Part shown: one piece after another, positions 1,464 through 59,914 of the stretch
How the letters are laid out: each line of letters starts with the position of its first letter
Position numbering within the stretch: the first letter of the stretch is position 1
Origin: Candidatus Epulonipiscioides saccharophilum
Lineage (GTDB): Bacteria > Bacillota > Clostridia > Lachnospirales > Cellulosilyticaceae
NCBI GenBank assembly: GCA_002007295.1
Contig: LNZM01000156.1
Span: forward strand, 11,730 to 75,729
Direction: 5' to 3'
Length of the DNA stretch: 64,000 bases
Made by a program: the position numbers and the translations under genes
Notes under the pieces: generated by a model
Databases searched by the model: none
Told to the model about the DNA's origin: nothing
What the model saw: the letters and a program-made list of their open reading frames with translations, nothing else

Positions 1464-1602
1464 CTCTCCTAAATGATTTTACTTTTATATTTCCACCTAA
1501 TAAATTTTTTATACATGATTAACAAATTTTAAGCGCTCCCCCCCTTTTATTTTTTTCCATATTAAGTTATACTCAATGCATAATTTTGAAAGGAGTATGT
1601 TG

Positions 1603-9072: not shown

Positions 9073-9080
9073 ACTGTGCG

Positions 9081-9284
9081 GTGCACTTAGACCCATCCGG
9101 GAACGGTGGAAGTTGAAAAGGTCAAGTGCGTCGCTTCGCTCTACTCTATCCGTATAGTCCTCCTTTCTGAGGGGGAAAACCACGAAGTGGCAAGGTTGGA
9201 GTAACGCTGTCATCTTCCCAACCTCTCAGTCACTTCGTGACAGCTCTCCTAAAAGGAGAGCCTATGCGGAAGGCTTAAGTGCAC
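9081..9284. repeat. MITE/REP-like palindromic element with a 9-bp terminal inverted repeat
   Basis: GTGCACTTA (9081) / TAAGTGCAC (9276); internal core 9218-9261 nearly identical to the reverse complement of 16647-16692. Confidence 0.7.
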
Positions 9285-9325
9285 AATTTTCCTTGAAGGA
9301 TTATATCTTAGAAAGGAAGTTACAC

Positions 9326-11080
9326 ATGCAAAATAAAACTGATGCTGTATTACAAATCATGAATAAAATGCCGACTAGTCAGCAAGAACAGGCCAAACAA
9401 ACATTGGGTAATTTCGGATTTGGAACCATTGCAAACATAGACGTATTAGTTAAATACAATGGTGACATCGAAAAAGTGGCTAACGAAGTCGGCGGAACTG
9501 TTCAAATATTGTCTACCAAATTTGCTGTTATGTCTATTCCAGAAGCCGCCGGTATGAATACACTTTTAGAATTTTCTGAAATAGAATATATGGAAACGCC
9601 CAAATTATTGAGTTACAATGTTAATACTTCTTTAAGCAATAGCTGTATAACATCCGTCAAAACCAAAAGTCCGTATAATTTAAAAGGAAAAGGTGTTTTA
9701 TTAGGAATTATCGATTCCGGTATTCAATACGCTCATCCAGATTTTATAAACGAAGATGGAACTAGTCGTATTTTATATATTTGGGATCAAAGCATAGAAG
9801 GTCAACCGCCTAAAGGGTTTAAAATAGGTACAGAGTATAATAATGAGCAAATTAATCGAGCAATAAAGCAACGGACCAAATCCGAACGCTTAGCTATAGT
9901 ACCGTCTCAGGATGATATAGGCCATGGGACTCACATTGCTGGAATTGCTGGAGGCAACGGAAAAATGAGTAATGGAAAATATGAAGGGATAGCTTCTGAG
10001 GCTCAATTCTTAATTGTAAAATTGGGTAAAGGTGGATCCAACGGTGCATATATTAGAAATATAGAAATAATGTTAGCCGTCAAATACGTCATCGAAAAAG
10101 CTAGAGATTTAAAGATGCCCATTGCTATAAATATTAGTAATGGAATGAACGAAGGACCACATGACGGCCAGTCTTTAATAGAACAGTATCTAGATGAGTT
10201 CTCACAAATGTGGAAAAATAATATTGTTGTTGCAGCCGGAAACGAAGGGGCTAGCAATACACATACTTATTTAAAAATAGAGAATGGAGACAGTACTTCT
10301 TTTTCATTTCAGGTTGGAGAAAATCAAAAATCTTATGCTTTATCTGTATGGAAATCGTTTATAGATATACTAGAGTTTGAGGTTGTAACACCATCCGGAG
10401 GGAAAAGTAGAAGAATTAGGTATAAAGACGGGCCAATCCAAGCTGTTATTGATAGAACCAGAATATATGCTACCTTTTCTGGACCATCTCCACTAAATGG
10501 CGATGAAGAATTTGCCTTATATTTGGCCGAAATAAGTGATGTCGGTGTAGCAAAAGGAATTTGGACGATAAATGTTTATGGAATAGACGTAATCGATGGT
10601 AACGTTCATGCATGGGGACCAACTTTAGAAATAGGTGGAGCCGATACATACATGTTAGAACCGATAAGAAATTCGACAGTCACAACACCGGGCACAGCTC
10701 GCAATGTAATTACGGTTGGAGCCTATAACGACTTAACAAATCAAATAGCAAATTTCTCAGGTGTTGGATTTACCCGAGATGGAACTATAAAGCCTGAAAT
10801 CACAGCCCCGGGTGTTGATATTACAGGACCATCTATTACCGGAAATTATATATCGTATAGCGGAACTAGCATGGCTACGCCACATGTCACAGGTGCTGTA
10901 GCATTAATGATGGAATGGGGCATTGTACGAAAACATCAACCATTTTTGTATGGAGAATATTTAAAAACTTTTTTGCTACGTGGAGCCAAACGAGAAAATA
11001 TAGATGCTCCAAGTACTGAATGGGGTTATGGCAAACTATGTTTAAAAAGTGCGTTTGATATTTTAGTCAAAAACGGATAA
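9326..11080 (+). CDS. S8 subtilase, Csp (CspB-like) germination protease
   Basis: GIIDSGI, GHGTHIAG, AAGNEG, GTSMATPHV canonical triad; start ATG 9326 behind GAAAGGAAG. Confidence 0.9.
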   Translation: MQNKTDAVLQIMNKMPTSQQEQAKQTLGNFGFGTIANIDVLVKYNGDIEKVANEVGGTVQILSTKFAVMSIPEAAGMNTLLEFSEIEYMETPKLLSYNVNTSLSNSCITSVKTKSPYNLKGKGVLLGIIDSGIQYAHPDFINEDGTSRILYIWDQSIEGQPPKGFKIGTEYNNEQINRAIKQRTKSERLAIVPSQDDIGHGTHIAGIAGGNGKMSNGKYEGIASEAQFLIVKLGKGGSNGAYIRNIEIMLAVKYVIEKARDLKMPIAINISNGMNEGPHDGQSLIEQYLDEFSQMWKNNIVVAAGNEGASNTHTYLKIENGDSTSFSFQVGENQKSYALSVWKSFIDILEFEVVTPSGGKSRRIRYKDGPIQAVIDRTRIYATFSGPSPLNGDEEFALYLAEISDVGVAKGIWTINVYGIDVIDGNVHAWGPTLEIGGADTYMLEPIRNSTVTTPGTARNVITVGAYNDLTNQIANFSGVGFTRDGTIKPEITAPGVDITGPSITGNYISYSGTSMATPHVTGAVALMMEWGIVRKHQPFLYGEYLKTFLLRGAKRENIDAPSTEWGYGKLCLKSAFDILVKNG

Positions 11081-27872: not shown

Positions 27873-28968
27873 ATAATATACTTTTAACATATATATCAAA
27901 TATCATATTCAAATCCACTTCTTCTGGATGATTAGCCAATTTAAGTTTATTCGCAAAAGTTATCTCTACATATTTTTGCAACTGTTCTTTAGAACATTTC
28001 ACTTTATATTCTTCTAACAATGGCTCTATTATATCACCTAGTTGATCAATACTAGATACGCCTAAATATTTTAATATTTGTTTTACTCGTTCTTGATTTT
28101 CTGGTTTTTTAAAAGACTTTAAATAAGCACGGTATAATATAGCGTTGGAAGCGCCATGTGGCATATTTTCATAATACGTTAAGCTATATCCGCATGTATG
28201 GGGCAAAGATGTTCCGGTTTGAGCTATTGCTATTCCGCCATAAGTGGATGCTAACAATAATTTTTCACGTACGTCTTTACATATATCAGCATTTGTTAAT
28301 GCTTCTAGACATTTAGATAATAGTTCTAGCCCCGTTTTAACGTACATCTCACTAATAATATTGGATTTGGTATTTAAATAACTTTCTACTAAGTGGCTTA
28401 ACGCATCTAAGGCCGTATACCTAGTAATTCCAAGAGGCATGTCCATCATATATTTTACATCTAAAAATGCTATTTCCGGAAAGACTTTATGTCCATAATT
28501 AATTTTAGTACCTCGTTTATGATCCGTAAAAATAGCATACTGAGTTACTTCGCTTCCTGTGCCCGCTGTTGTTGGAATCGCTATCACTGGTATAGCATCT
28601 AATTTTGGGCCACCTATTAAATGCTGAGCATCTATTTCTGGATGCTTTATCATAATTGCAATCCCTTTTGCTGCATCCAATGGCGATCCTCCACCAATTC
28701 CTATTACAAAATCTATATCTATAGCCATCTTTTTGGCCTTTTCTAATGTTTCCAAAGAGGGATTTTCTTCTACTTCATCGAATAATTCATGTTTTATCCC
28801 TTCTTTATCTAACGCACTTGTTATATCCTTATAGGCCCCATTTTTTTTTGCCGAAGATTTTCCTGTTACAATTAAAGCCTTATTACCTTTTTTTAGCAAA
28901 GTGCTGTTTTTATTTATACATTCGTCTCCTGAAATGATTGTCGTTGGCATTTCAAATATAAATTCCAT
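27871..28968 (-). CDS. Iron-containing alcohol dehydrogenase family protein
   Basis: GIGGGSPLDAAKG, IPTTAGTGSE, DALSHLVESY, PHG; true start ATG 28968 (MEFIFEMPT) behind GGAGG. Confidence 0.93.
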   Translation of the reverse strand: MEFIFEMPTTIISGDECINKNSTLLKKGNKALIVTGKSSAKKNGAYKDITSALDKEGIKHELFDEVEENPSLETLEKAKKMAIDIDFVIGIGGGSPLDAAKGIAIMIKHPEIDAQHLIGGPKLDAIPVIAIPTTAGTGSEVTQYAIFTDHKRGTKINYGHKVFPEIAFLDVKYMMDMPLGITRYTALDALSHLVESYLNTKSNIISEMYVKTGLELLSKCLEALTNADICKDVREKLLLASTYGGIAIAQTGTSLPHTCGYSLTYYENMPHGASNAILYRAYLKSFKKPENQERVKQILKYLGVSSIDQLGDIIEPLLEEYKVKCSKEQLQKYVEITFANKLKLANHPEEVDLNMIFDIYVKSIL

Positions 28969-29097
28969 TCTATGGTTTTCCTCCAATACTTGTAGTTGGC
29001 ATTTCAAATATAAATTTCATTTTATGGATTTCCTCTAATAATTGTAGTTGACCTTTCAAATATAAATTTTATTTTATGGGTTTCCTACAATAATTTA
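28943..29097 (-). repeat. Three 52-bp tandem copies of the ADH RBS/start region
   Basis: Units start at 28943, 28995 and 29047 and decay outward. Confidence 0.92.
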
Positions 29098-29291: not shown

Positions 29292-32204
29292 TTATTCTTC
29301 GGATTCTTTTATTACGTCCAAAATTTTATTCATATCCGTTACATATGCTAACCCATTAAACCTCGGCCCATTTTCAAAAGAAAAAATACTTCTCGCTGCT
29401 ACCCCATCATCTCCTAATAACCTACTATAAGGATTGATTTTTATTGTCGTTTTTTTAGACTGCTTTTCATATTTCGCATAATGGTGTAACATTAAAGCAG
29501 TTACTAAACTATCCTTTAATGCTCCATTCTCTACTAATCCCTTCAAAATTATATTGTTAATATCTTCATTTTTATAAATATTAGTAATGGTTGAGTATGA
29601 CATTACTTTTCTATATATTTTCCCTTTTTCAGATCGGCCTCCTACTATTTGCCCCGAATATATATTAAAAACTCCAGATAATTTTTTATTTTCGTTTTTG
29701 ATGTGTTGATCTATTTCTTGTGTATCCTTCATATGAAGAGCTGTTTCCAAAAAACCACTGCTATGATCAATAACTCTAAACTGTTCAAAATAAAGTGGAT
29801 ACATTCTTAAGTCGCTGTGAAGTTTAAAAACCTTCTCTAAAACATCTTCGTTCATAAAAAACATATTTTCAACTTTTTTTGTTAAGTTAACTTTACTTGT
29901 AAATGGTTTCTGTGCTATATAAATAATATCTTTATATCCTAAATCATACAGTTCATCAATAGTTTTTGTTACAATATCAGGTTTATAAAATACGTCTGTT
30001 CCGTCATAATAATCTTGAAAAGTTTTAAAAGTATCGTAAATTATACAATTATCGCTTATTTTTGTTAATAATACTACTTCTCCTAAAAGTACTTTGGTTC
30101 CACGTTCTCTATCCGCAAAGCTACTATCTGTTTGTCTACTAGTTACTATAATAATAGCTGTCTGATCCAATATACTTGTAGTATCAAATATAAAATTCTT
30201 TGGAACATTAGCATACATAGATGACAAAGCGTTGTTATAAACAAAGTCTCCACTATTATCAATATTAAAACCTTGTGAGGCTGCGTGATATTCGTTATTT
30301 AATCCATGCTCAAATATTTTTACTACATTTCTTACATGACTCCCTACTTCTTCTGGAAAAATATTACGATGTATTCTCATTAAATTGATGTATATGAGCT
30401 TGTTCCGTTCTGTCTTAGGTAAGCATTTACATAATATTGTATTCAATAAGGTTAAATAAGATATTTGGTAAATTCGATCATTTACCATTTTAGGATTAAT
30501 TGTATAAGGAATTTTAATATTAAAATAACCTTGTAAATTTTTTTCAATTATCGTTAAACTATTTCTATCTTCATAATTTGTTTGGCTAGGATAAAAAATT
30601 ATCGGTAATATATTTAAGCTTAGCTTATTATAATCGATTGTTAGTTGATCAATATCCGAAGTTTCATACATAGCTTTACTTTTGATATTAATTTTAATTG
30701 GTAATTTTAATAATATCTGTGCTACATTTTCATTTATGGTTAATTGATCTAAATTTTTTTCATGTATAACACTTATATTTTGCAAATACTCTGTAAAATG
30801 CTTTACTGGTCGTAAAAAACTATGTGAATCTAGATTTGGAGCCAGAACATTTTTAAATAAAAATAATTCTCGATCAAAATCTTTGTCTTGAATCGCCATA
30901 TCTGTTAATCTATATCGAACTACACTTAAAAATATATTTTCAATTGACTGAATATTTCTATCACCGGATCCAGTGCCATTAGCATTAAAATAATGGTCAA
31001 AGACTTTTATTATTTGATCAAATCTCTTTAATTCCAGTAATCTTTTAAGTCCTAAATCGTCATCTCTTTCCCAAGTTAAAACCGGGTCATAATTGGGATT
31101 TTCTAATTCAAATAGTAAAAATGAAAATAAAAATATCTTTCTAATTGCTTTGTCAAATTTCGACTCACGTAAATCTTCTTCTAAACTATCCAAATGATAT
31201 CTGTAAGATGCCTTTTGATCTTCGGCTTGTACATTACCATTAAGTTTCATACTCAAGACTCTTTTAAAAGTTTGCGTTTTGTCTGTTTTGTCTTTTGATA
31301 AAATACCATCAACTTTTCCGATAAAAGGCATCATATCAAAAATATTACTTTGGGAAAATATATTGCTTATATTTTTTTCAAATGTTCCGATAACAATTGT
31401 TTTATCTTGTTCTCTTTTAAACGAAAGTTTAGCTAAATATTGTTCTACAAGACTAAATCTGGTTATATAACATTTAGTTAAAATATAGTCTCTAGAGTTT
31501 TTATTTTTATAGTTTAATAACAAATAATACATATACATAATAGAAATAGATCTACTAATACAGGCTAAAGACTTATTTTCTAACATATCTATTAGCCCTT
31601 CTAATCCACCCTGTAAGTTTAAAGCTTTGGTTATTTGAATATCTTGATCATCTTCATCTAGTTCTTCCTTAATAAGCTCGATTACACTATCTACTAAAAA
31701 TTTAGCGTCATTTTCTGTATTAATCTCAATTTCTACATAATCCATTCTTAAGCGTTCCATTTGGTTAGGTTGATTTGGGTTAAAAGAAATACGCCTTTTA
31801 TTAACAGTATGACTATTAAAGTTATAATCCATGCCGAAATTTATTTTTTCGTTAGGTCTTGACTTTAAAGAATAAATGTCAGTCAGCAAATTCGAGTCTA
31901 TTTCTGGACAATTAAGTTTTTCGCTTATCATTTTTATATACTCTGCAAAAGTAGCATAATCTTTATGTTCTAACGTCGCAAAATCGGGTGCTTTATACAT
32001 ATCAATCTCCAAAGTGTTAAGAGCAGAAGATCGTTTAAAGTGATTAGCAATACTTTCACAAATATCGGAAAGATTAGATATTTTTAAATTTGTGCTTGTT
32101 TGTTTAATTTGGAGCTTATCTATGGCTGAGTTTAAAAGTTTAGTTAAAACAGGTATGTAGTTTACCTTGGATAAGAAATCCATATTATCTCGTAATATAT
32201 TCAT
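29292..32204 (-). CDS. 970-aa uncharacterised protein; C-terminal half resembles an inactive MID-PIWI module
   Basis: Long uninterrupted ORF with an AGGA-containing RBS; fold call is inferred from motif order only. Confidence 0.85.
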   Translation of the reverse strand: MNILRDNMDFLSKVNYIPVLTKLLNSAIDKLQIKQTSTNLKISNLSDICESIANHFKRSSALNTLEIDMYKAPDFATLEHKDYATFAEYIKMISEKLNCPEIDSNLLTDIYSLKSRPNEKINFGMDYNFNSHTVNKRRISFNPNQPNQMERLRMDYVEIEINTENDAKFLVDSVIELIKEELDEDDQDIQITKALNLQGGLEGLIDMLENKSLACISRSISIMYMYYLLLNYKNKNSRDYILTKCYITRFSLVEQYLAKLSFKREQDKTIVIGTFEKNISNIFSQSNIFDMMPFIGKVDGILSKDKTDKTQTFKRVLSMKLNGNVQAEDQKASYRYHLDSLEEDLRESKFDKAIRKIFLFSFLLFELENPNYDPVLTWERDDDLGLKRLLELKRFDQIIKVFDHYFNANGTGSGDRNIQSIENIFLSVVRYRLTDMAIQDKDFDRELFLFKNVLAPNLDSHSFLRPVKHFTEYLQNISVIHEKNLDQLTINENVAQILLKLPIKINIKSKAMYETSDIDQLTIDYNKLSLNILPIIFYPSQTNYEDRNSLTIIEKNLQGYFNIKIPYTINPKMVNDRIYQISYLTLLNTILCKCLPKTERNKLIYINLMRIHRNIFPEEVGSHVRNVVKIFEHGLNNEYHAASQGFNIDNSGDFVYNNALSSMYANVPKNFIFDTTSILDQTAIIIVTSRQTDSSFADRERGTKVLLGEVVLLTKISDNCIIYDTFKTFQDYYDGTDVFYKPDIVTKTIDELYDLGYKDIIYIAQKPFTSKVNLTKKVENMFFMNEDVLEKVFKLHSDLRMYPLYFEQFRVIDHSSGFLETALHMKDTQEIDQHIKNENKKLSGVFNIYSGQIVGGRSEKGKIYRKVMSYSTITNIYKNEDINNIILKGLVENGALKDSLVTALMLHHYAKYEKQSKKTTIKINPYSRLLGDDGVAARSIFSFENGPRFNGLAYVTDMNKILDVIKESEE

Positions 32205-32473
32205 AGTTCAGTTTAATCCTCTTTTAGTTTTTCAGTATTAATTATACAACGAGGATATAGATTGTTATATCCTCGTTTAAAATTTTAATTGTGTAAAATT
32301 CTTTAGATATTGGTGTTACGCCTCTGTCAGCGATGTCGAAGCGTAATCAAATACATTATTGACACAAAATTAGAATTTTAATCATTTCTCGAAAAATTTT
32401 TTTTATTGCTTCTGCTGAAAGCTTTCTGGTTCATCCATTAGGTAGCATTAAGATATCATAATTTTATGCTATT

Positions 32474-32548
32474 TTATCTTCTAAGGATTTTCTCCATTGA
32501 CTTTCCTTTAGCAAGTTCATCAACAAGTTTATCTAAATATCGCATTTC
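32474..32548 (-). pseudogene. DUF2200-like C-terminal fragment
   Basis: EMRYLDKLVDELAKGKSMEKILRR* with no intact upstream frame. Confidence 0.7.
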
Positions 32549-32700
32549 TTTTTACAACAAATTTCACTTCTTTATTGCTTCTGTATAAATATTTCCGGCC
32601 CTTTTCTTTATTCCAACAATTTAGTATTTTATAACATTTTTCATTTTAATATGTTATAATGGACAAGCAAAGTACGAATTATAAATTATATAGGCATACG

Positions 32701-32819
32701 TATAAAATGAAAAATTCTATCGCCTACGAAAAATCACGTTATAAATTTAGACGTAAATAAAAATTATAAAATGAAAAATGCTACTACATACGAAAAATCA
32801 CGTTATAAACTTAAACGTA
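32701..32819. repeat. Intergenic 64-bp-period tandem duplication
   Basis: 32701-32755 versus 32765-32819, ungapped, shared TACGAAAAATCACGTTATAAA. Confidence 0.85.
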
Positions 32820-33034
32820 CGAAAAGTAATAAAGTTATAATATAAAAAATCCAATTTGACTCAACCTATTTTATCTCTATAGAATGAATCATCAGTTTTT
32901 AAGAATTTGGATATAATTTCAAAACAAATTTCATTTTTTTATTGGAACTAGATTAGACCTTGATATTTTGTTGTCTTTTAATTAAAATATTTTATGCAAC
33001 TAGAAGTGTTTTTTAGTCTGAAATAAAAATACAA

Positions 33035-33877
33035 TTGAGGAAAGAAGTTGATAAATTGTTAAAAAAAACGCTTAAAAAAGTCAAAGAGGTTTGTCCATTA
33101 ATTCACAACATTACAAACTATGTAACAGTTAATGATTGCGCAAATATTTTACTAGCTTGCGGTGCCTCACCTATCATGGCTGATGACATAGCAGAAGTGG
33201 AAGAAATTACTAGCATTTGCGGAGGTTTAACTATTAACATTGGAACATTAAATGAAAGAACTATAGAGTCCATGATATTAGCTGGCCGAAAAAGCAATTT
33301 ACTAAATCATTCTGTAGTCTTAGATCCGGTTGGAGTAGGAGCATCTAAATTTCGAACAAACACGGTAGAAAAATTATTGAAAGAAATTCAATTTACAGCA
33401 ATCCATGGAAATGTTTCTGAATTAAAGGCTTTAGCCATTGGATCTTCTAGTACCACCGGCGTGGATGCAAATATTAATGATAAAATCACCCAATCCAACA
33501 TTCAAGAAGTAGTACAACTGGCAAAAAATTTTTCTAAAGAATCCCAAGCTATCATTATTGTTACAGGAGCAATCGACATTGTATGCGATGCTAATCAAGC
33601 ATATATTATTAAAAACGGTCATCCAATGATGAGTAAAGTTTCCGGAACAGGTTGCATGTTATCAACCATGATCACAGCCTATTTAACAGCAAATCCAGAT
33701 GACAAACTTTTAGCAAGCGCAACCGCTGTTATCTTAATGGGATTGGCTGGCGAATTAGCCTTTAATAGATTATCAGAATATGAAGGAAACCTGACTTATA
33801 GGGATTTAATAATAGATGAAATCTACAATATGGATGGTAATATTTTAGAGCAAAAAGCTAAATATAAAATATGCTAA
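33035..33877 (+). CDS. thiM: Hydroxyethylthiazole kinase
   Basis: PLIHNITNYVTVNDCAN, VLDPVGVG, GTGCMLS; start may be TTG 33056. Confidence 0.95.
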   Translation: MRKEVDKLLKKTLKKVKEVCPLIHNITNYVTVNDCANILLACGASPIMADDIAEVEEITSICGGLTINIGTLNERTIESMILAGRKSNLLNHSVVLDPVGVGASKFRTNTVEKLLKEIQFTAIHGNVSELKALAIGSSSTTGVDANINDKITQSNIQEVVQLAKNFSKESQAIIIVTGAIDIVCDANQAYIIKNGHPMMSKVSGTGCMLSTMITAYLTANPDDKLLASATAVILMGLAGELAFNRLSEYEGNLTYRDLIIDEIYNMDGNILEQKAKYKIC

Positions 33878-34268
33878 GAATATAAAATAAATCTGACTTC
33901 CTAGAGACTTAATAATAGATTACATTTACAATATGGATGGTAATATTTTGGAGCAAAGAGCTAAATATGAAATATGCTAAGAATATAAAATAAATCTGAT
34001 TTCCTAGAGATTTAATAATAGATGAAATTTACAATATGGATGATAATATTTTGGAGCAAAAAGCTAAATATGAACTATGCTAAAAATATAAAATGAATCT
34101 GACTTCCTAGAGACTCCATAATAGATGACATTTATAATATGAATGGTACTATTTTGGAGTAAAGAGCTAAATATGAAATGTGCTAATAATATAAAAATAA
34201 TAGATGAAATTTAAAATATAAATGGTACTGTTTTGAAGAAAGGAGCTAAATATGAAATGTGCTAATAA
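33791..34268 (+). repeat. About five tandem ~103-bp copies of the thiM 3' end / thiE start junction
   Basis: Units at 33791, 33893, 33996, 34099 and a partial unit at about 34196. Confidence 0.95.
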
Positions 34269-35679
34269 AATGATGAGATTATACGCCGTTACCGATAGAG
34301 CTTGGGCATCATCCGAAAATCCCTTAATTAGACAAGTAGAACAAGCGTTAGAAGGCGGGATCACATGTTTACAGCTACGAGAAAAAAATTATTCTAATCT
34401 TGACAAAAAGGATATCATTATCATACAAGATTTATGTTCCAAATATAATGTACCATTTATAATAAACGACAGTTTATCCATTATGCTAGAATACCAAGCA
34501 GCCGGTATCCACATTGGACAAAACGATTTACCCGCATCAGAAGTTCGTAGCATAATAGGCTCTAACAAAATTTTAGGAGTAACTGTTCATTCCGTAGACC
34601 AGGCCAAAAAAGCCGAAGAAGATGGTGCCGACTATCTTGGGGTTGGCGCAATCTTTTCGACTACTACAAAATCAGACGTTAATTTAATTCCAGAAGAAGT
34701 CATCCAGCAAATAACTTCTATCGTAAACATTCCGGTCGTCGCTATAGGTGGTATCACTCTCGAAAATATTTATAAATTGAAACCTCTAAATATAGATGGT
34801 GTCGCCATTGTCTCAGCTATATTTTCAAGCAACAACATTAAAAATACATGCCAAAAATTATTGAAAAAATCCGAAAAAATTGCCAGAAAACCAACGGTAC
34901 TAACCATAGCTGGATCGGATTGCAGTGGTGGGGCTGGTATTCAGGCCGACCTTAAAACATTCGCAGCAAATAAGGTTTACGGAATGAGTATTATTACCGC
35001 CTTAACAGCGCAAAACACAACTGGCGTTTACGGAATATTTGATATAACACCCGAGTTTATAGGCCAACAATTCGATAGCGTTTTTACAGATATTTACCCC
35101 AATGCTATAAAAATCGGCATGGTCTCAAACGTTGAAACTATAAATATGATAGTCTCTAAAATTAATCAATATAAACCCAAAAATTTAGTCATAGACCCTG
35201 TTATGGTTTCCACTAGTGGCCATAAATTATTATCCGATGGAGCTGAAACAGAATTAATAGAAAAACTTTTACCATGTGCTACTGTGATAACACCAAATAT
35301 TCCAGAAAGTGAAATATTGTGGAATAAATCTATCAATACAAAAGACGACATGATGGAGGCTGCCGAATATATCGCCAACAAAATCGGTACAGCTGTCCTA
35401 GTTAAAGGCGGTCACCTAATAAATGATGCCATGGATTTCCTTTTTTCAAACGGCATCGGTACTTGGTACACATCCGAAAAAATAAATACTGAAAATACTC
35501 ATGGTACCGGATGTACTCTCTCATCAGCCATCGCTGCTAACCTAGCTAAAGGTTATAGCTTAGAAAAAAGTATAACTCGTGCTAAATTATACTTGGTCGG
35601 CGCTTTAAAAGCTGATTTAAATCTTGGCCGAGGTAGTGGCCCTCTCGATCATGTTTATAATGTTAACGAAATTAAATAA
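34252..35679 (+). CDS. thiDE: Bifunctional ThiE-ThiD (thiamine-phosphate synthase / HMP-P kinase) fusion
   Basis: N-half LYAVTDR, LQLREK, IHIGQND, VAIGGI; C-half AGSDCSGGAGIQAD, DPVMVSTSG, THGTGCTLS. Confidence 0.93.
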   Translation: MKCANKMMRLYAVTDRAWASSENPLIRQVEQALEGGITCLQLREKNYSNLDKKDIIIIQDLCSKYNVPFIINDSLSIMLEYQAAGIHIGQNDLPASEVRSIIGSNKILGVTVHSVDQAKKAEEDGADYLGVGAIFSTTTKSDVNLIPEEVIQQITSIVNIPVVAIGGITLENIYKLKPLNIDGVAIVSAIFSSNNIKNTCQKLLKKSEKIARKPTVLTIAGSDCSGGAGIQADLKTFAANKVYGMSIITALTAQNTTGVYGIFDITPEFIGQQFDSVFTDIYPNAIKIGMVSNVETINMIVSKINQYKPKNLVIDPVMVSTSGHKLLSDGAETELIEKLLPCATVITPNIPESEILWNKSINTKDDMMEAAEYIANKIGTAVLVKGGHLINDAMDFLFSNGIGTWYTSEKINTENTHGTGCTLSSAIAANLAKGYSLEKSITRAKLYLVGALKADLNLGRGSGPLDHVYNVNEIK

Positions 35680-38783: not shown

Positions 38784-39247
38784 TCGGCTACTTCCAAATT
38801 GTTCCACGCAGATGTTAGCTTTCTCCAAATTGTTCTACACAAATATTAGTTTTCTCTAAATTATTTTACGCAAATATTAGCTGACTATAAATTGTTTTAC
38901 GCCAATATTAGCTGACTATAAATTGTTTTACGCAATATTAGATTTCTACAAGTTGTTCTACACAGATGTTAGCTGGCTACAAATTGTTCTACACAGATGT
39001 TAGCTAGCTACAAATTGTTCTACACAAATGTTAGCTGTCTACAAATTGTTCTACACAAATATTAGCTTTCTCCAAATTGTTCTACACAGATGTTAGCTGT
39101 CTACAAATTGTTCTACACAGATGTTAGCTGGCTACAAATTATTCTACACAAATATTAGCTGGCTACAAATTATTCTACACAGATGTTAACTGGCTACAAA
39201 TTGTTCTACACAAATATTAGCTTTCTCCAAATTGTTCTACACATATG
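38784..39247 (-). repeat. Array of about 15 x 31-bp units copying the last 31 nt of the dCMP deaminase gene
   Basis: Units start at 38815, 38846, 38877, 38908, 38938, 38969, 39000, 39031, 39062, 39093, 39124, 39155, 39186 and 39217 (the coding copy), plus a degenerate unit near 38784. Confidence 0.97.
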
Positions 39248-39663
39248 CTAGCTTCTTCTAGTAATTCTAAAGCTAAACTATCCGGATAATCTCCTTGATA
39301 TATAATCTTGGTTATACCCGAATTTATCAGTACTTTTACGCACATACTACATGGTTGTGTAGTTACATATAGGGTTGAATCACGTACAGATATCCCATTT
39401 TTAGCGGCCTGAGTTATAGCGTTCTGCTCAGCATGCAATGCTCGGCATAATTCATGTCTTTCTCCTGAAGGAATATTTAATGCTAATCTTAAACATCCTA
39501 TATCTATGCAATGTCTGCAATTAGTTGGTGCTCCATTATATCCTGTTGATAATATTTGTTTGTCTTTTACTAAAACGGCTCCTACTCGCCGTCTTAAGCA
39601 CGTTGATCTAGTTTTCACTAAATTGGCAATATCCATAAAATATTGATTCCATGACGGTCTCAT
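39217..39663 (-). CDS. dCMP deaminase (ComEB-like)
   Basis: [27 protein letters not shown] zinc motifs. Confidence 0.93.
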
Positions 39664-40455: not shown

Positions 40456-40890
40456 TTAATCCATTTCTTCTATTTGTGAAATTCGCCTTATGTGTCGTGG
40501 ATCATTCGAAAATTCTGTATCTAAGAATTCATTCACTATTTCTATAGCTAAACCTGGTCCTATAATTCTACCGCCCATTGCTAATATATTCGCATCGTTA
40601 TGTTCTCTAGTGGCCTTAGCACTAAATAAATCATGGCACAGTGCACAGCGAATTCCTTTGATCTTATTAGCTGTTATAGATATTCCTATACCTGTACCGC
40701 AAATAAGTATTCCTTTCGTCGCTTCTTTACTTAAAATCTTTTTTGCTACTTGCTTTGCATACTCCGGATAATCCGTTGATTCTAAGCTATTACAACCTAA
40801 ATCTATACAGTCTATACCTTTTGATTTTAGATGTTGTATAATTTCTTGCTTTAGAGTAAATCCTCCATGGTCTGAAGCTATCGCTATCAC
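40456..40890 (-). CDS. rpiB: Ribose-5-phosphate isomerase B
   Basis: ASDHGG, CGTGIG, REHNDANIL, RHIRRI; GTG start behind GGAGG. Confidence 0.96.
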   Translation of the reverse strand: MIAIASDHGGFTLKQEIIQHLKSKGIDCIDLGCNSLESTDYPEYAKQVAKKILSKEATKGILICGTGIGISITANKIKGIRCALCHDLFSAKATREHNDANILAMGGRIIGPGLAIEIVNEFLDTEFSNDPRHIRRISQIEEMD

Positions 40891-41014
40891 TGTCTGTCCT
40901 CCAATATAATTATTTGATTGTTAGGTGCATAATTTCTTATTTTAGAGTAAATGCTCCATGGTCTGAAGCTATCACTATCACTTTTTATCCTCTAATCTAA
41001 TTATCTGATTGTTA
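40838..41014 (-). repeat. 91-bp-period duplication of the tsaC stop / rpiB start junction
   Basis: 40838-40923 versus 40929-41014. Confidence 0.93.
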
Positions 41015-50572: not shown

Positions 50573-51601
50573 ATGACAACTTATTTAGAAAAAGTCAAAT
50601 CTTTATTGCCCGGCTTTTTAGCAGCTTTTATTATTGCTATGCTAGCCAAATTTTTGGAAGAAGCAATGCCCATTCACCTTATTGGTGCATCAGTTCTTGC
50701 TATTTTTATTGGAATGATTTTAAATTCTATTTATAAACCAGCCATATTAAATAGTGGACTCAAATTTACGTCTAAGAAAATTTTAAAAATTGCTATTATT
50801 TTGTTAGGTGCTTCTCTAAGCATACAAACTATTTTAGAAGTTGGAAAATTATCCTTAATCGTAATGTGTGCAACACTCTTAACATGCTTTGGTGGTGGAT
50901 ATTTTGTTGGAAAAGCACTCGGTTTAAACTGGAAATTATCCAACCTTATTTCTGCTGGAACTGGTATTTGTGGTGGATCTGCTATCGCTGCTATAGCACC
51001 GGTCATCGATGCGGAAGACACCGATATTGCTTACGCGATGTCCGCAACCTTTTTATTCGATATGGCAATGATAATATTATTTCCATTTATGGGTCATGCA
51101 CTCGGCCTAAGCGATATGGCCTATGGCTTATGGGCCGGGACCGCTGTTAACGATACTTCTAGCGTTGTGGCTGCTGGCTATGCTTATAGCGAAGCAGCGG
51201 GCGACTTTGCTACTATGGTTAAGTTAACAAGAACGTTATCAATTATTCCAACTGTTTTAGTTTTTGCATACATAAATGCGAAGCTCAAGCAAAAGGCTAC
51301 TAACAACGAATCAATAACTACTAAAAAAATAAATTTCAACAGTTTATTTCCATATTTTATTGTAGGATTTTTACTTCTTTCTGCTATAAACAGTTTAGGA
51401 TGGATACCTGTATCTCTTTCTGAAACTTTAAAAGAATTGAGTAAATTTTTAATGGTAATGGCCCTAGGAGCCATTGGATATAATACTAGCTTCAAAGAAA
51501 TGAAAAAATCCGGAATTTCGCCTATGATACATGGTTTTATAATTTCTGCGCTAGTTGTTATCGTGGCCATCGGAGTCGAATATTTAATGGGTATGGTCTA
51601 A
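50573..51601 (+). CDS. YeiH family (UPF0324) putative sulfate exporter
   Basis: LGASL, GTGICGGSAIAA, GTAVNDTSSVVA, VKLTR. Confidence 0.92.
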   Translation: MTTYLEKVKSLLPGFLAAFIIAMLAKFLEEAMPIHLIGASVLAIFIGMILNSIYKPAILNSGLKFTSKKILKIAIILLGASLSIQTILEVGKLSLIVMCATLLTCFGGGYFVGKALGLNWKLSNLISAGTGICGGSAIAAIAPVIDAEDTDIAYAMSATFLFDMAMIILFPFMGHALGLSDMAYGLWAGTAVNDTSSVVAAGYAYSEAAGDFATMVKLTRTLSIIPTVLVFAYINAKLKQKATNNESITTKKINFNSLFPYFIVGFLLLSAINSLGWIPVSLSETLKELSKFLMVMALGAIGYNTSFKEMKKSGISPMIHGFIISALVVIVAIGVEYLMGMV

Positions 51602-52240
51602 AATATTTATACCTCCACTAATCAATATAATAAAAGTGGAGGCTTTTTTTATGTGGCTAATCGAATATTTAATGGATGTGCTTTAAAATATTTATACCTC
51701 CACTAATCAATATAATAAAAGTAGAGACTTTTTTATGTAGCTAATCGAATATTTAATTGGTATGCTCCAAAATATTTATACTTCCGCTAATCTGAAAGTG
51801 GAGACTTTTTTTATGTGGCTAATCGAATATTTAATGGGTATGCTCCAAAATATTTATACCTCCACTAATCAATATAATAAAAGTGGATGCTTTTTTTATA
51901 TGGCTAATCGAATATTTAATAGATGTGCTCCAAAATATTTATACCTCAACTAATCAATATAATAAAAGTGGAGACTTTTTTTATGTGGCTACTCGAATAT
52001 TTAATGGGTATGCTCCAAAATATTTATACCTCCACTAATCAATATAATAAAAGTGGAGGCTTTTTTTATGTGGCTAATCGAATATTTAATAGATGTGCTC
52101 CAAAATATTTATACCTTCACTAATCTAAAAGTGAAGACTTTTTTTATGTGGCTAATCGAATATTTAATGGATATGCTTTAAAATCTTTCTATCTCCACTA
52201 ATCAATATAATAAAAGTGGAGACTTTTGTTATGTTGCTAA
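51576..52240 (+). repeat. Eight tandem 78-85-bp copies of the yeiH stop region plus terminator
   Basis: Units at 51576, 51661, 51745, 51823, 51908, 51993, 52078, 52156; each has a CTCCACT..AGTGGAG-type hairpin and T tract. Confidence 0.97.
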
Positions 52241-53899
52241 TTATATAACTAAAAAACTATTTTGAAAATCTAACTTGCCAAAACCTTCTACATTACTTGG
52301 ATAAGTTATTCCCGGACTTCTGCTACCTCCACGAGCCAAAATTTCTTTTGCTACTCTCGTATTAATAGTCGGCATATTTGCTTCTACTATACTCCACTCC
52401 AACAAAAGTGCGCACGCACCAGCTGTTATGGCGGCCCCCACACTTGTCCCTGTATATGTAGACTGAACATCGTTAATCATTGGCCCACTAACAGCTATAC
52501 TCGGTGCTATTATATCCGGCTTGGTTATATTATGTCTCGTAGGCCCTCTACCCGATGCTGCGTATAAACTCTTATCTATCTCGTCATATCCTCCTACAAC
52601 TATAGAATAAATTCCAGTAGCTGGTACACAAACTGTTGTTTCTAAATTCGGTTCGGAAAACCTTGTATTGGCTTCTACAAATCCTGTCCTTGGAATCCAC
52701 ATATCAAAAGTCCCATCTATTATATAATCTCCATAAATATCTATATGCCAAATTCCTGGAATTGGATCTTTTAAGGATATCCTTATAGATTCTCCGCCCG
52801 TATTTGATTCCGGATACTTATATTCTACCGTTACCTTACTCTTTTGCAAACTAAAAGTAAATTCTTCTCTCTTATACGGTTTTAATGGGACTCTTTCTAC
52901 TACTTGCCCAATTGGCGTTCTAATTCCTACACTCATCTTATCAACATTTCGTGTCCATAATGATAAATCAAAACCATTTTCATCCTTAGCCACGTTTATT
53001 TCTACACCACGTTTTTCGCCTTCAGTGACCGTATTTTTATAATGATGCCCTGAGTTGCCCTCGTTCCCAGCAGCTACAACTACGATTATTCCGGGTACTA
53101 AAGTTAATGATTGTATATACCTTTCTATTATATTTGTACCATCGTGGCCTCCAAAATTATTTCCTACTGTTATACATATAACCAGTGGCTTTTCTAATTC
53201 CGTCGCTTTCTTGACTAAATAACTTATTGCTGTCAATATTGACCCATCGCTATATGCTGTAATAGATTCCTTTACATAAAAAATATCCTTTAAACTTTGT
53301 GGCGCTGGTCTCAGCTTTACTATAACTAAATCACTGTCCGGTGCTGCACCAATATATCCGGTATCGCCTATTCTATCACTTCCCGCAGCTAATCCGGCTA
53401 TGTAGGTTCCATGGCCCACATCATCTTTTGTAGCTATCACACTTAACGGATCATCTGCTTTTAACGCTTTATTTAATTCTTCTCTAGAAAATTCGGCTCC
53501 AAATCCAAAGTCAAACGGTGCCTTACCCTCTAAGGTTTGATCCCAAATGCTTAAAATTCTCGTAGTTCCATCCTCATATTTGAACACATCATTCGTATAA
53601 TCTATTCCAGTATCTAAAAATCCTATTAAAACTCCATTCCCTCTTAACTGTCCATATGGATAATTGTGAAAAATTAAAATACCCGCTTCTTGTAATGACT
53701 CCTCGGAATTTAATCCGTATAAATAAGAATTTTGAATATATGCTGACTTTTTTGTTAATAGATCCAAATCCGATTGTCCATCTACAGGAACTTCGACTAT
53801 ATATATTGCATTGTCAATGTGCCTAAAAATTAATTTTGGATATTTTTTGCGAAGTTCTTCTAAATTTTTAAAGTCTTCTATTATATATTCACTGAACAA
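52241..53899 (-). CDS. S8 subtilase, Csp family
   Basis: GFLDTGID, GHGT, AAGNEG, GTSVGAA triad; GFG tail. Confidence 0.88.
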   Translation of the reverse strand: MFSEYIIEDFKNLEELRKKYPKLIFRHIDNAIYIVEVPVDGQSDLDLLTKKSAYIQNSYLYGLNSEESLQEAGILIFHNYPYGQLRGNGVLIGFLDTGIDYTNDVFKYEDGTTRILSIWDQTLEGKAPFDFGFGAEFSREELNKALKADDPLSVIATKDDVGHGTYIAGLAAGSDRIGDTGYIGAAPDSDLVIVKLRPAPQSLKDIFYVKESITAYSDGSILTAISYLVKKATELEKPLVICITVGNNFGGHDGTNIIERYIQSLTLVPGIIVVVAAGNEGNSGHHYKNTVTEGEKRGVEINVAKDENGFDLSLWTRNVDKMSVGIRTPIGQVVERVPLKPYKREEFTFSLQKSKVTVEYKYPESNTGGESIRISLKDPIPGIWHIDIYGDYIIDGTFDMWIPRTGFVEANTRFSEPNLETTVCVPATGIYSIVVGGYDEIDKSLYAASGRGPTRHNITKPDIIAPSIAVSGPMINDVQSTYTGTSVGAAITAGACALLLEWSIVEANMPTINTRVAKEILARGGSRSPGITYPSNVEGFGKLDFQNSFLVI

Positions 53900-54050: not shown

Positions 54051-55730
54051 ATGAAAAAATTTGCTAAATATCTACTAATTATATGCTTACTAAATTATTC
54101 TACTTATCAATCTTTCGGCATAGATAACCTTATTTTAAATAATACAGAAATACTAATAGAAGCAGAAAATGCTCCTCTTATAACCGCCGAAGGATACATA
54201 TTATTACCCATTGCTGAAATCGGTTCTTTACTCAATATTTCGGTTACAAAAAATTTATCTGGCCTAACAGCAAATGGACAGAATATCAATACGAAAGAGC
54301 CAATCACTATAAATGTTGATATATACACAGGAAACGTTACCAATACTGATGATTCGATCCTTTTAGAAAAGGCCTGCGTTATTTATAACAGCCGTGTGTA
54401 TGCTCCACTGAATTTATTTACAGAAATATTTGGATATGAAACAGAATATATCGACGAAACAATATACATTCAAAGTACTCCATTAAATCTGGACAAGCTA
54501 AAAACAACCACAGATTTAGCTACCGAATTAACGGAGACCGACCTAGAAACTACTTTAAGTAATCAAGATTCAGCTACAGAATTATCAGCGACCGACCTAG
54601 AAACTACTTTAAGCAATCAAGATTCAACTGCAGAATTAACGGCGACCAACCTAGAAACTGCTTTAAGTAATCAAAATTCAGCTACAGAATTAACGGCGAT
54701 CGACCTAGAAACTACTTTAAGCAATCCAGATTCAACTGCAAAATTAGCGGCGACCAACCTAGAAACTGCTTTAAGTAATCAAGATTCAGCTACCGAATTA
54801 TCAGCGAACAACCTAGAAACTACTTCAAACAATCACAATTCCGCTACAGAATTAACGACGACCAACCTAGAAACTGCTTTAAGTAATCAAGATTCAGCTA
54901 CCGAATTATCAGCGACCAACCTAGAAACTACTTCAAACAATCACAATTCCGCTACAGAATTAACGGCGCCCGATCTAGAAACTACTTTAAGCAATCAAGA
55001 TTCAACTGTAGAATTAACTGCGCCCGATCTAGAAACTACTTTAAACAATCAAGATTTAGATACTGAATTAACAGCGACCGACTTAAAAACTACTTTAAGC
55101 AAGCAAGGTCCAGTTACAGAATTAAAGTTGGCCAACCTAAAAGCTACTTTAAGCGCAGATTTTATCCAGAAATATTCAACTACAGAATTAAAGACTGCCA
55201 ATCTAGAAACTACTTTAAGCAATCAAGATTCAGCTCCAGAATTAACGGCGCCTGATCTAGAAATTACTTTAAGCAATCAAGATTCAGTTGCAGAATTAAC
55301 AGAGGACGAGCTAAAAACTACTTTAAGCATTCCTAATCAATCCATTACTTCGATCATAGCAGAAACTTTTTTATTGGTTAATCAATATCGTATTGCCTTT
55401 GGCATTGAGCCTTTATTATTAAATCCTGAATTAACGTCTTTAGCACAACTTAGATCGGATGATATGTATAATTTCAATTATTATTCGTACGATAGTCCAA
55501 CCTACGGTATGCCTTTAGAAATGCTAGATACATATGATATCTCTTACAATATAGCTGGGATCAATATCGCTAAAGGTCAAACCTCATCCACTGAAGTTAT
55601 GACAGCTTGGATGAGTAGTTCCGGCCATAGCCAAAATATTCTATCTAGTTCCTATACGGAAATTGGTATCGGTTACAATCCAATCGGAAAATGTTGGACT
55701 CAAATATTCTTAAAGCCACAAATTCAATAA
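54051..55730 (+). CDS. Secreted protein: copper-amine-oxidase-N-like domain, 15 x 18-aa repeats, C-terminal CAP/SCP domain
   Basis: Signal peptide; YILLPI/VYAPL segments; repeat ATELTATDLETTLSNQDS; LVNQYR..SPTYG..WMSSSGHSQNIL. Confidence 0.85.
   Translation: MKKFAKYLLIICLLNYSTYQSFGIDNLILNNTEILIEAENAPLITAEGYILLPIAEIGSLLNISVTKNLSGLTANGQNINTKEPITINVDIYTGNVTNTDDSILLEKACVIYNSRVYAPLNLFTEIFGYETEYIDETIYIQSTPLNLDKLKTTTDLATELTETDLETTLSNQDSATELSATDLETTLSNQDSTAELTATNLETALSNQNSATELTAIDLETTLSNPDSTAKLAATNLETALSNQDSATELSANNLETTSNNHNSATELTTTNLETALSNQDSATELSATNLETTSNNHNSATELTAPDLETTLSNQDSTVELTAPDLETTLNNQDLDTELTATDLKTTLSKQGPVTELKLANLKATLSADFIQKYSTTELKTANLETTLSNQDSAPELTAPDLEITLSNQDSVAELTEDELKTTLSIPNQSITSIIAETFLLVNQYRIAFGIEPLLLNPELTSLAQLRSDDMYNFNYYSYDSPTYGMPLEMLDTYDISYNIAGINIAKGQTSSTEVMTAWMSSSGHSQNILSSSYTEIGIGYNPIGKCWTQIFLKPQIQ
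54519..55328 (+). repeat. In-frame 54-bp coding tandem repeat, about 15 copies
   Basis: 18-aa Thr/Ser/acidic unit counted in the translation. Confidence 0.93.
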
Positions 55731-58856: not shown

Positions 58857-59057
58857 ATGCATTACAGTATTTTGCCCATTATTTACCCGGAAGAATCTCC
58901 AGAATATGTGGAACTTCAGTATAATGGTTGCAACGTTTTAGCCCGTGTCTCAGATGAGGGCTATATCCTAGAAAGGCTTCACAGCTATGATTATATGGAT
59001 TTCATGAATAGTGATTTCGCACCCGGAACGTTGTTAAACAGTACTTTAATTGATTAG
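58857..59057 (+). CDS. ylzJ: YlzJ-like protein
   Basis: MHYSILP, LERLHSYDYMDFMN..PG; directly after tepA; AAGGAGG RBS. Confidence 0.85.
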   Translation: MHYSILPIIYPEESPEYVELQYNGCNVLARVSDEGYILERLHSYDYMDFMNSDFAPGTLLNSTLID

Positions 59058-59270
59058 GCCCATTCCTTCCACTATATCGTGGAGGGAATATTTTTTAGAA
59101 ATTTTTCATTATATGACGGCTATATCCTAGCAAGGCTTCTTAGCTATGATTATATGGATTTCCTGAATCGTGATTTTACACCCGCAACGTTGTTAAACAG
59201 CACTTTAATTGATTAGGTCCATTCCTTCCACTATGCCATGGAGAGAATATTTTTAAAAAAATTTTCATTA
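58959..59270 (+). repeat. 159-bp-period duplication of the ylzJ 3' half plus terminator
   Basis: 58959-59111 versus 59118-59270, ungapped over the coding part. Confidence 0.95.
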
Positions 59271-59427: not shown

Positions 59428-59766
59428 ATAAGTAAATCAGATGGTCGCAGGTATATTTTTTTAATATACGTGAGGAACGTCCGGGCTCTATAGAGCAAAG
59501 GTGCTGGATAACACCCAGTCGAGGCGACTCGAAGGAAAGTGCAACAGAAATAGACCACCCATTTTTTTGGGAACGGATGGAAAGGCGAGGTAAAAGCTCA
59601 CCGTTTTTTAGGCGACTAAAAAAGCCATGTAAACCCCACCTAGAGCAAGACCAAAATAAGACTTAGGTTGCTCGCTAGTCTTGAGTAGGTCGCTAAAATT
59701 TTTAGGCAACTACTAATTTAGATAGATGACTGTCAAATACTGAACCCGGCGTATAGATTTGGTTAT
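59428..59766 (+). ncRNA. rnpB: RNase P RNA (type A-like)
   Basis: GAGGAACGTCCGGGCTC, GGAAAGTGCAACAGAAA, GGTAAACC-like and ACTGAACCCGGCGTA motifs; P1 and P2 pairings traced. Confidence 0.95.
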
Positions 59767-59914
59767 AAATTTCACCCTCTTATATATTTGGGTGATTTTT
59801 TTTGCCCCATTTTAACTTAGATAGATGACTATCAAATGCTAAACCCAGCATATAGATTTGATTATAAATTTTACCCTCTTAAATATATTTGAGTGATTTT
59901 TTTTGCCCTATTTT
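59718..59914 (+). repeat. 99-bp-period echo of the rnpB 3' end plus terminator
   Basis: 59718-59813 versus 59817-59914. Confidence 0.93.

Follow-up and report, generated by a model that had tools for sequence, protein, structure and literature searches.

We analyzed a 64,000-nt stretch of the genome of Candidatus Epulonipiscioides saccharophilum (contig LNZM01000156.1), here called the window, in which thiM and thiE are separated by a tandem array of copies of the thiM 3′ end. All coordinates are positions in the window, with position 1 as its first letter. The gene thiM, which encodes hydroxyethylthiazole kinase, lies on the plus strand at positions 33056 to 33877 (Pfam HK, E = 9e-69). The gene that follows on the same strand, at 34252 to 35679, encodes a 475-aa ThiE-ThiD fusion that combines thiamine-phosphate synthase (TMP-TENI, E = 2e-58, residues 10 to 190) with phosphomethylpyrimidine kinase (Phos_pyr_kin, E = 2e-92, residues 223 to 465). 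The longest thiM open reading frame (ORF) begins at TTG 33035 and has 280 codons. The start is probably TTG 33056 instead, giving 273 aa, since homologues have 272 to 273 aa and the ThiM protein of a sister strain (P0002) begins at the equivalent of 33056. The HK model ends at residue 266 of 280, which fits a ThiM tail without an independent role. An exact-protein look-up returned no protein identical to either ThiM or ThiE-ThiD of the window.

The array between the two genes is real, as confirmed by Tandem Repeats Finder (TRF), BLAST, and in-register alignment of the units. TRF placed it at 33775 to 34196 (period, 103; 4.1 copies; 88% matches; score, 634), with a second, overlapping row of period 79 at 34118 to 34268. 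A BLAST search with one unit found five in-register places between 33776 and 34265 and no other match in the window. Such constant-period, head-to-tail copies are those of a local tandem duplication, or variable-number tandem repeat (VNTR; minisatellite). The array at 33776 to 34265 consists of four full units of 102 or 103 nt and a fifth unit that lacks 24 nt. Alignment of GAATATGAAGGAAACCTGACTT (thiM) with GAATATAAAATAAATCTGACTT (spare units) sets the duplicated segment at 33776 to 33877, i.e., the final 34 codons of thiM including the stop (102 nt), and its right breakpoint lies directly 3′ of the thiM TAA. The spare units align to unit 1 over 102 nt with 12 to 21% mismatch and carry one extra base (CCT for AT), showing that the unit derives from the unique sequence that flanks the array. 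A first-pass annotation of this DNA had begun the array at 33791, which is not its natural register. The unit of ~103 bp given there fits the spare units, but the original unit is 102 nt long and unit 5 is short by 24 nt.

Every unit ends in a variant of GAGCAAAGAGCTAAATATGAAATGTGCTAA. Unit 1 (33776 to 33877; 102 nt) is the live 3′ end of thiM; it ends in ...AAAAAGCTAAATATAAAATATGCTAA, with the stop codon TAA at 33875 to 33877. Within it, the thiE Shine-Dalgarno (SD) sequence has decayed to AAAAAGC, and ATA replaces the thiE ATG at 33864. Unit 5 (34187 to 34265; 79 nt) lacks the 24 nt TAAATCTGACTTCCTAGAGACTTA. Its end, GAAAGGAGCTAAATATG, contains GAAAGGAG and provides the live thiE SD, AAAGGAG (34239 to 34245), and ATG (34252). 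The units in between, each 103 nt long and on the plus strand like the others, have kept an ATG without an SD, and these ATGs open mini-ORFs of 8, 8, and 13 codons. In unit 2 (33878 to 33980), the ATG at 33967 begins MKYAKNIK plus stop (33967 to 33993); in unit 3 (33981 to 34083), the product would be MNYAKNIK plus stop (34070 to 34096); and in unit 4 (34084 to 34186), it would be MKCANNIKIIDEI plus stop (34173 to 34214). Unit 4 is a mosaic, with a 5′ part like units 2 and 3 and a 3′ part like unit 5. The spacer from the thiM stop (33877) to the thiE ATG (34252) is 374 nt. The first-pass annotation had thus correctly described the ~103-bp periodicity with variant unit ends, the live thiM stop and ATA in the first unit, the live thiE ribosome-binding site and ATG in the last, and an inserted spacer of ~375 nt.

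We located the thiM stop and the thiE start in each of 80 loci with ThiM relatives, taken from species-representative genomes. The closest relatives of the window ThiM are 62 to 63% identical (Clostridia, Catonella, and Oscillospiraceae metagenome-assembled genomes [MAGs]). In 76 of these loci thiE follows thiM, and junction counts refer to these. At 43 of the 76 junctions, an in-frame thiE start (ATG, TTG, or GTG) precedes the end of the thiM stop by exactly 14 nt, and candidate overlaps at ~19 further junctions measure 4, 8, 11, or 17 nt. The junction of Catonella, GGGAGCAAGATATGAAATGTGCTAA / GGGAGCAAGATATGAAATGTGCTAAGG, is nearly identical to unit 5 of the window. None of the outgroup junctions carries a tandem array. 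We conclude that the thiM-thiE junction overlapped ancestrally, as the first-pass annotation had proposed. It had named non-overlapping orthologous junctions beforehand as the finding that would speak against it, and the orthologues do overlap. In the window itself the genes lie 374 nt apart and are not an overlapping pair; overlap is found in the orthologues and in an allele of a sister strain described below.

We estimated SD strength as the energy of the duplex between the 16S rRNA tail and positions −14 to −4 upstream of the start. The value for unit 5 was −11.9 kcal/mol, and the values for units 1 to 4 were −0.7, −2.1, −0.7, and −2.1 kcal/mol, respectively. Hence, unit 5 is the only unit with a working SD. 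The ThiM tails of the 43 orthologues with a 14-nt overlap have Glu at position −3 (43/43), Lys at −5 (37/43), and Gly at −7 (35/43). In the DNA, E(−3) and G(−7) correspond to the thiE start codon (NTG-A) and SD (GGNG). The live ThiM tail of the window, NILEQKAKYKIC followed by the stop, has Lys at both −3 and −7. Unit 5 is not translated in the thiM frame; read in that frame (TVLKKGAKYEMC plus stop, ending ...KGAKYEMC plus stop), it keeps E(−3) and G(−7), and it has acquired the 24-nt deletion and an in-frame stop. Since the two residues were lost from the live tail but kept in unit 5, they are conserved for the start and SD of thiE and not for ThiM function. We conclude that each copy shed the constraint of the other gene after duplication. 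Units 1 and 5 therefore show the complementary loss of subfunctions that defines duplication-degeneration-complementation. That both genes are intact follows automatically from tandem duplication of any whole junction, so only the later complementary decay is informative. SD energies, ATA versus ATG, and the tail residues all bear out the proposal that one function survives in the first copy and the other in the last. G/C sites in the units have changed ~2.8 times as often per site as A/T sites, and AT-biased change of this kind would be enough to erode an SD in spare copies without selection.

The first-pass annotation had also read the middle units as drifting stepwise from one form to the other, so that the array would record the order of events. 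Adjacent units differ by 13 (units 1 and 2), 7 (2 and 3), 15 (3 and 4), and 8 (4 and 5) mismatches, and the remaining pairs differ by 12 (1 and 3), 10 (2 and 4), 21 (1 and 4), 12 (2 and 5), 13 (3 and 5), and, over 78 compared sites, 16 (1 and 5). Divergence rises with distance in the array (Mantel r = 0.75), and 6 of the 120 orderings were as good as the actual one, the minimum possible being 2. The gradient exists, but with five units it is borderline. The units look more like two clusters (1 to 3 and 4 to 5) than like a smooth drift. Unit 4 is a mosaic, a three-unit allele of a sister strain corresponds approximately to units 1, 3, and 5, and neighboring arrays gain and lose units, all of which indicates that unequal exchange reshuffles the units. 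With mosaic inner units and a copy number that moves both up and down, the array cannot serve as a record of how events were ordered.

Alleles of sister strains were recovered as de Bruijn contigs from four gut metatranscriptome runs of one 2017 study. A 1,550-nt contig with 44× depth (L081) contains thiM, a three-unit array, and thiE in one piece, and its ThiM (P0002) is 96% identical to that of the window. Unit 1 of this allele is identical to unit 1 of the window, and its middle unit is nearest to unit 3 (2 mismatches). Its last unit shares the 24-nt deletion and has, in addition, a private A-to-C change and one more T in the SD-ATG interval. A 560-nt contig (X2) comes from a divergent strain, ~10% different in thiM, and has a single-copy junction. 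It follows thiM up to 33766, continues with 41 unaligned letters, and rejoins the window one base ahead of the unit 5 core, at 34196. The net loss of 388 nt corresponds to the entire extra array. The 41 letters and that one base together replace the 42 nt of 33767 to 33808, so the thiM frame is kept. Substitutions give a unit that ends in ...GGTGATATTTTAGAGAAAGGAGCTAAATATGAAATGTGCTAA and reads DILEKGAKYEMC plus stop in the thiM frame. Judged from its sequence, the X2 allele is a single overlapping junction of the orthologue type. Because the contig has words that occur in no unit of the window, it is no simple assembler jump between window-like units. A further contig (X4) omits 309 nt (3 × 103) and may be either a two-unit allele or an assembler collapse. 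When the 125 C-terminal amino acids of ThiM were used as a protein query for partial proteins of sister strains, only distant matches were returned.

Copy number at the junction thus differs among strains, as expected of a VNTR, in contigs derived from RNA. The series of alleles with one, possibly two, three, and five units supports serial gain or loss of units, and the serial duplication claimed in the first-pass annotation was borne out to that extent. Separately, a 421-nt contig from X1 (33506 to 33887) runs from the 3′ end of thiM through ATAATAAAT back into the body of thiM, stepping back by 382 positions, and X1 also has a loose end after a unit with GAATATAAAAAAAATAAAACAACCAAGACA. The contig and the loose end could reflect a larger duplication in a minor strain, a circular path in the graph, or a chimera.

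The array is cotranscribed with both genes, since one RNA contig covers thiM, the array, and thiE. A consensus scan found the promoter-like sequence TTGATA-17-TAAAAT at 32960 to 32988 on the plus strand (10/12 matches), which is the probable promoter of the thiM operon. RNA contigs from the four runs all start at 33008/33009, with zero depth upstream, and this position is likely the mRNA 5′ end downstream of TTGATA-17-TAAAAT. We found no terminator-like site in the array, and promoter-like matches within it were not in excess (26, versus 22 ± 5 in shuffled sequences). RNA of the spacer region (33860 to 34275) was no better folded than shuffled sequence (z = +0.74), and no Rfam family matched the spacer at its gathering threshold or at E ≤ 10. 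On these grounds we rejected a structured regulatory RNA in the spacer. A thiamine pyrophosphate (TPP) riboswitch was present in 16 of 16 loci of relatives that were scanned, 1.2 to 2 kb upstream of thiM, and none was found at the gathering threshold or at E ≤ 10 within 32100 to 34400 of the window. The operon has therefore lost its TPP riboswitch, and its regulation is rewired; control of the thi operon through a THI-box aptamer at 32100 to 34400 was rejected. The ~830 nt upstream of thiM (32205 to 33055) contain no ORF and no Rfam match.

The first-pass annotation had treated the array as a singular event. We found that it is one case of a habit seen across the window. At a period of at least 30 and a TRF score of at least 200, the window holds nine arrays, of which one is coding and eight are noncoding, and all eight noncoding arrays contain a local gene terminus. 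The nine arrays have no sequence similarity to one another, each unit being private to its array, and SDs in the window arrays have decayed in the spare copies. Two further arrays carry translation starts. On the minus strand at 28933 to 29095 (52 nt × 3.1), the SD and start of an Fe-ADH gene are triplicated, and the copies decay stepwise from proximal (GGAGG..ATG) through middle (AGAGG..ATG) to distal (GTAGG..ATA). The true start of this gene is probably the ATG in the gene-proximal copy (~28965 to 28967) and not the TTG at 29007 given in the ORF list. On the same strand at 40838 to 41014 (91 nt × 1.9), the sua5/rpiB junction is duplicated: the stop of sua5 lies in the distal copy (40978), and the GTG start of rpiB (40890) lies in the proximal copy, which has GGAGG (versus AGAGG). 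Both copies contain GTGA, in which the sua5 stop overlaps the rpiB start. An X1 contig reproduces this array with 1 mismatch, and sister strains may have extra copies, to judge from X3 and X4 contigs. No ancestral overlap was found in sua5/rpiB orthologues, the two closest of which have spacers of 24 to 25 nt, so the overlap there is deduced from the two copies in the window.

The remaining noncoding arrays duplicate 3′ ends. The last 165 nt of a TIM-family gene (1576 to 2442, plus strand) are duplicated downstream of its stop (array, 2276 to 2607). An unstranded array of 31 nt × 14.8 (38795 to 39253) sits between a glycosyltransferase-4 gene and a cytidine/dCMP deaminase gene (39217 to 39663, minus strand) and overlaps the 3′ end of the latter by 36 nt; an X4 contig skips ~11 of its units. 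Between two convergent genes, at 51576 to 52241 on the plus strand, the last 26 nt and terminator of a PF03601 gene are present eight times with an 85-nt period, forming eight intrinsic-terminator-like sites, each a CCTCCAC...GTGGAGG hairpin with a T-run. At 58954 to 59270 on the plus strand (159 nt × 2), the last ~104 nt of a small ORF (58857 to 59057; 66 aa) and a terminator-like hairpin are duplicated; this ORF may encode a YlzJ-like protein and follow a ClpP/TepA-like gene. The RNase P RNA (59429 to 59769) has its last 56 nt and terminator duplicated at 59714 to 59914 on the plus strand (99 nt × 2), and the second copy has G-to-A changes that would weaken base pairing. The single coding array (54512 to 55329) is an in-frame 54-nt (18-aa) repeat of 15 copies in a secreted-type protein with Cu_amine_oxidN1 and CAP domains (54051 to 55730). 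Like the thiM-thiE array, neighboring arrays are polymorphic, with extra and missing units in sister strains.

Array density is 14 per 100 kb in the window and 0.68 per 100 kb in 3.5 Mb of Clostridia/Lachnospirales control loci (24 arrays by the same criteria; Poisson P against the first control set, 1.6e-7), a ~20-fold figure that may be inflated because the controls are mostly short-read MAGs, which may underrepresent repeats. An 11-kb locus of the closest relative, Ca. Epulonipiscioides gigas (L242), contains one array (5916 to 6145; 121 nt × 1.9), in which a minus-strand gene (5292 to 5933) has its start and the region upstream of it duplicated, with GAGGAA in the proximal copy and TAGGAA in the distal copy, a pattern like that of the window arrays. 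Two other loci of the Epulopiscium clade (33 kb) contain no arrays.

Among the proteins encoded in the window, ValS is nearest to those of Ca. Niameybacter, Sporanaerobium, and Ca. Cellulosilyticum (69 to 71%), and Sua5 is nearest to that of Ca. Epulonipiscioides gigas (Epulopiscium A2 single-cell genome; 67%), followed by Epulopiscium sp. (51%). Other window genes specify Csp germination proteases, a sulfatase, and a GH16 enzyme. Gene content and relatives fit a gut symbiont of the Epulopiscium clade that degrades algae and forms spores or offspring. Two neighboring subtilases of the Csp type, which have a CspB prodomain (spore-germination proteases), are encoded at 7306 to 11080, and a third S8 protease is encoded at 52241 to 53899. 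Two large ORFs, at 29292 to 32204 (970 aa, minus strand) and at 5001 to 7316 (771 aa, plus strand), have no Pfam domain at E ≤ 0.001.

We consider it quite probable that the thiM-thiE array is a copy-number-variable minisatellite generated locally from the last 102 nt of thiM by a near-neutral duplication of the junction, one that probably decoupled the two genes. In the ancestor, with thiM and thiE overlapping by 14 nt, this segment would also have held the SD and ATG of thiE, and slippage or unequal recombination may have copied it head to tail; we saw no informative microhomology at the breakpoints. Because duplication of the whole junction leaves thiM complete, ending in the first copy, and thiE complete, starting in the last, it would have been tolerated. 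Unit 1, freed from thiE, would then have lost the SD and ATG and changed the ThiM tail, and unit 5, freed from thiM, would have kept the SD and ATG, lost 24 nt, and gained a stop in the thiM frame. Units 2 to 4 appear to be filler that is transcribed, has mini-ORFs without SDs, and forms no special RNA structure. A spacing of ~20 nt nearly abolishes coupling by termination-reinitiation (Huber et al., PMC10666635), so ancestral coupling between ThiM and ThiE-ThiD would have been lost across 374 nt, leaving thiE-thiD to be translated from its own strong SD. The ancestral translational coupling and its loss are thus predicted from the sequences. On a larger scale, the array may have arisen because this gut symbiont of the Epulopiscium clade produces short tandem duplications at an unusually high rate or tolerates them unusually well. 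A duplication of 30 to 170 nt inside a gene disrupts it and would be removed by selection, but one that spans a whole terminus keeps an intact copy of every signal, so the survivors would straddle gene ends. The array is best seen not as a special device but as one case of a frequent, probably near-neutral class of gene-terminus duplications. The anatomy of the array, the ancestral overlap, the complementary decay, the cotranscription, the strain polymorphism, and the window-level enrichment at gene termini are observations; the loss of coupling, near-neutrality, and any link to lifestyle or polyploidy are inferred.

Several points weigh against this account. The sister alleles come from metatranscriptome de Bruijn contigs, and the two-unit form is possibly an assembler collapse because 27 letters are shared at its joint. 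All five units are present in no single independent contig, with a gap in the X1 contigs at 33952 to 34086, so the count of five rests on the assembly of the window. The single-copy allele could in principle be a secondary collapse, since recombination between units 1 and 5 would give an identical sequence. In addition to the possible inflation of the density figure, the enrichment comes from one 64-kb window, and the three control loci of the Epulopiscium clade (44 kb) hold one array. Finally, neutral drift and selection for decoupling are not separable on these data.

The last point leaves room for an adaptive account, which we regard as unlikely, in which the array was selected because it decouples ThiE-ThiD from ThiM or because its copy number tunes the ratio of ThiM to ThiE-ThiD, in the manner of a contingency locus. 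Co-occurring strains do have one, three, and five units, a strong SD is found in the last unit only, with three SD-less upstream mini-ORFs that could modulate initiation, and regulation of the operon has already been rewired by loss of the TPP riboswitch of 16/16 relatives. Yet like arrays occur at unrelated ends where no coupling is at stake, among them ordinary 3′ ends of genes and that of the RNase P RNA. Moreover, the spare units diverge by 7 to 21% with an AT bias, as unconstrained DNA does, and the spacer has neither structure nor an excess of promoter-like sites. A different history, to which we give a low probability, would make the array older than the split of the strains: ancestral to the local clade and repeatedly lost, with the single-copy allele arising by unequal crossover between first and last units. 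Unit deletions occur in other arrays, and the single-copy allele does look like a fusion of unit 1 (5′ part) with unit 5 (3′ part), but every position of it also fits the orthologue consensus. Its thiM body is ~10% diverged, no alignment to the window is possible for the 42 nt that precede the unit core, and no outgroup has the array. Parsimony therefore favors a single-copy ancestor.

That the array is an assembly artefact, a single junction over-expanded or misjoined, is very improbable. No independent contig spans the five units, but units that differ by 7 to 21% are not the same reads copied. The X1 RNA contigs reproduce 33791 to 33951 (units 1 and 2) with 0 mismatches and 34087 to 35000 (units 4 and 5 and thiE) with 2 mismatches, and a three-unit array is contained in the one sister-strain contig of 44× depth. 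Least credible is the insertion between the genes of a dispersed repeat element, like a mycobacterial interspersed repetitive unit (MIRU) or a repetitive extragenic palindromic (REP) sequence, or of an array of the clustered regularly interspaced short palindromic repeat (CRISPR) type. A weak Rfam match to CRISPR-DR51 at 33837 to 33870 hints at the latter, but it scores 19.8 bits against a gathering threshold of 45 (E = 8.6), and the entire 103-nt period repeats with no unique spacers; we rejected a CRISPR array on these two grounds. The unit is homologous to the flanking 3′ end of thiM and is absent elsewhere in the 64-kb window, and the nine arrays share no sequence with each other, for which reason a dispersed intergenic repeat family was rejected within the 64 kb.

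Duplication of the thiM-thiE junction makes this locus a natural experiment on a conserved gene overlap: once the segment was duplicated, E(−3) and G(−7), which are strongly conserved across Clostridia, were promptly lost from ThiM. The co-occurring strains with one, three, and five units are an allelic series for the cost and benefit of translational coupling. A broader and more tentative proposal is that tandem duplication of 30 to 170 nt, occurring at a high, lineage-specific rate and filtered by selection, decompresses gene ends throughout the Epulopiscium clade. Such duplication might separate overlaps, multiply terminators, SDs, and RNA 3′ ends, and leave hypervariable arrays that differ between co-resident strains and alter expression, possibly in connection with extreme polyploidy and frequent recombination between genome copies. 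If so, the one-, three-, and five-unit thiM-thiE alleles would be a natural allelic series for the worth of gene overlap. Should the ~20-fold density of terminus duplications hold genome-wide, it would amount to a distinctive evolutionary mode for the genomes of giant, highly polyploid gut symbionts and would be a practical warning for their annotation and short-read assembly.

In the literature that we searched, we found no described bacterial overlap resolved by tandem duplication. The array does resemble several known systems in part. Under duplication-degeneration-complementation, or escape from adaptive conflict, reportedly set out by Force and colleagues in 1999, an element with two functions becomes two copies, each of which sheds one function together with the constraint of the other. 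The same happened here, except that a 102-nt gene junction and not a gene was duplicated, and each of the two functions serves a different gene. When overlapping phage genes (T7.1 and phiX174) are refactored, or decompressed, by engineering, the shared sequence is duplicated to give every gene its own copy. The thiM-thiE overlap was likewise separated by duplication of the shared sequence, but refactoring is deliberate design, whereas the thiM-thiE array is natural and has several spare copies. Like coupled overlapping gene pairs (PMC10666635, PMC6728339), the ancestral thiM-thiE pair overlapped on the same strand with the SD inside the upstream gene. Its overlap was 14 nt, compared with the common 1 or 4 nt, and the window has a 374-nt spacer instead. 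In Ca. Epulopiscium viviparus (type B), a member of the same clade, the genome contains scattered blocks of imperfect direct repeats; many blocks are intergenic, and their units, typically of 18 or 21 bp, are block specific (Sannino et al., PMC10756260). As in the window, units are not shared between blocks; the blocks are not described as copies of gene termini, and the periods in the window are 31 to 165 nt and include stops, starts, SDs, and terminators. MIRUs (Supply et al. 1997, cited in PMC2734929) are units of 40 to 100 bp, often in tandem and intergenic in operons, proposed to affect differential translation in polycistronic mRNAs. As presented there, they form one dispersed family at 41 loci, in contrast to the window arrays, each of which has its own unit from the adjacent gene end. 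Among described cases, the rnc-fpg1 junction comes closest: in the Mycobacterium tuberculosis complex it is a polymorphic 279 to 358 bp (VNTR3239/ETR-F), and in other mycobacteria it is 1 to 20 bp (PMC2734929). There, too, a tight same-strand junction has been expanded by repeats that end at the downstream start codon and vary in copy number among isolates. The repeats begin 40 bp after the rnc stop, however, and are not described as copies of the upstream gene end; of the two junctions, only thiM-thiE has been shown to have had an ancestral overlap, with complementary decay of SD, start, and stop.

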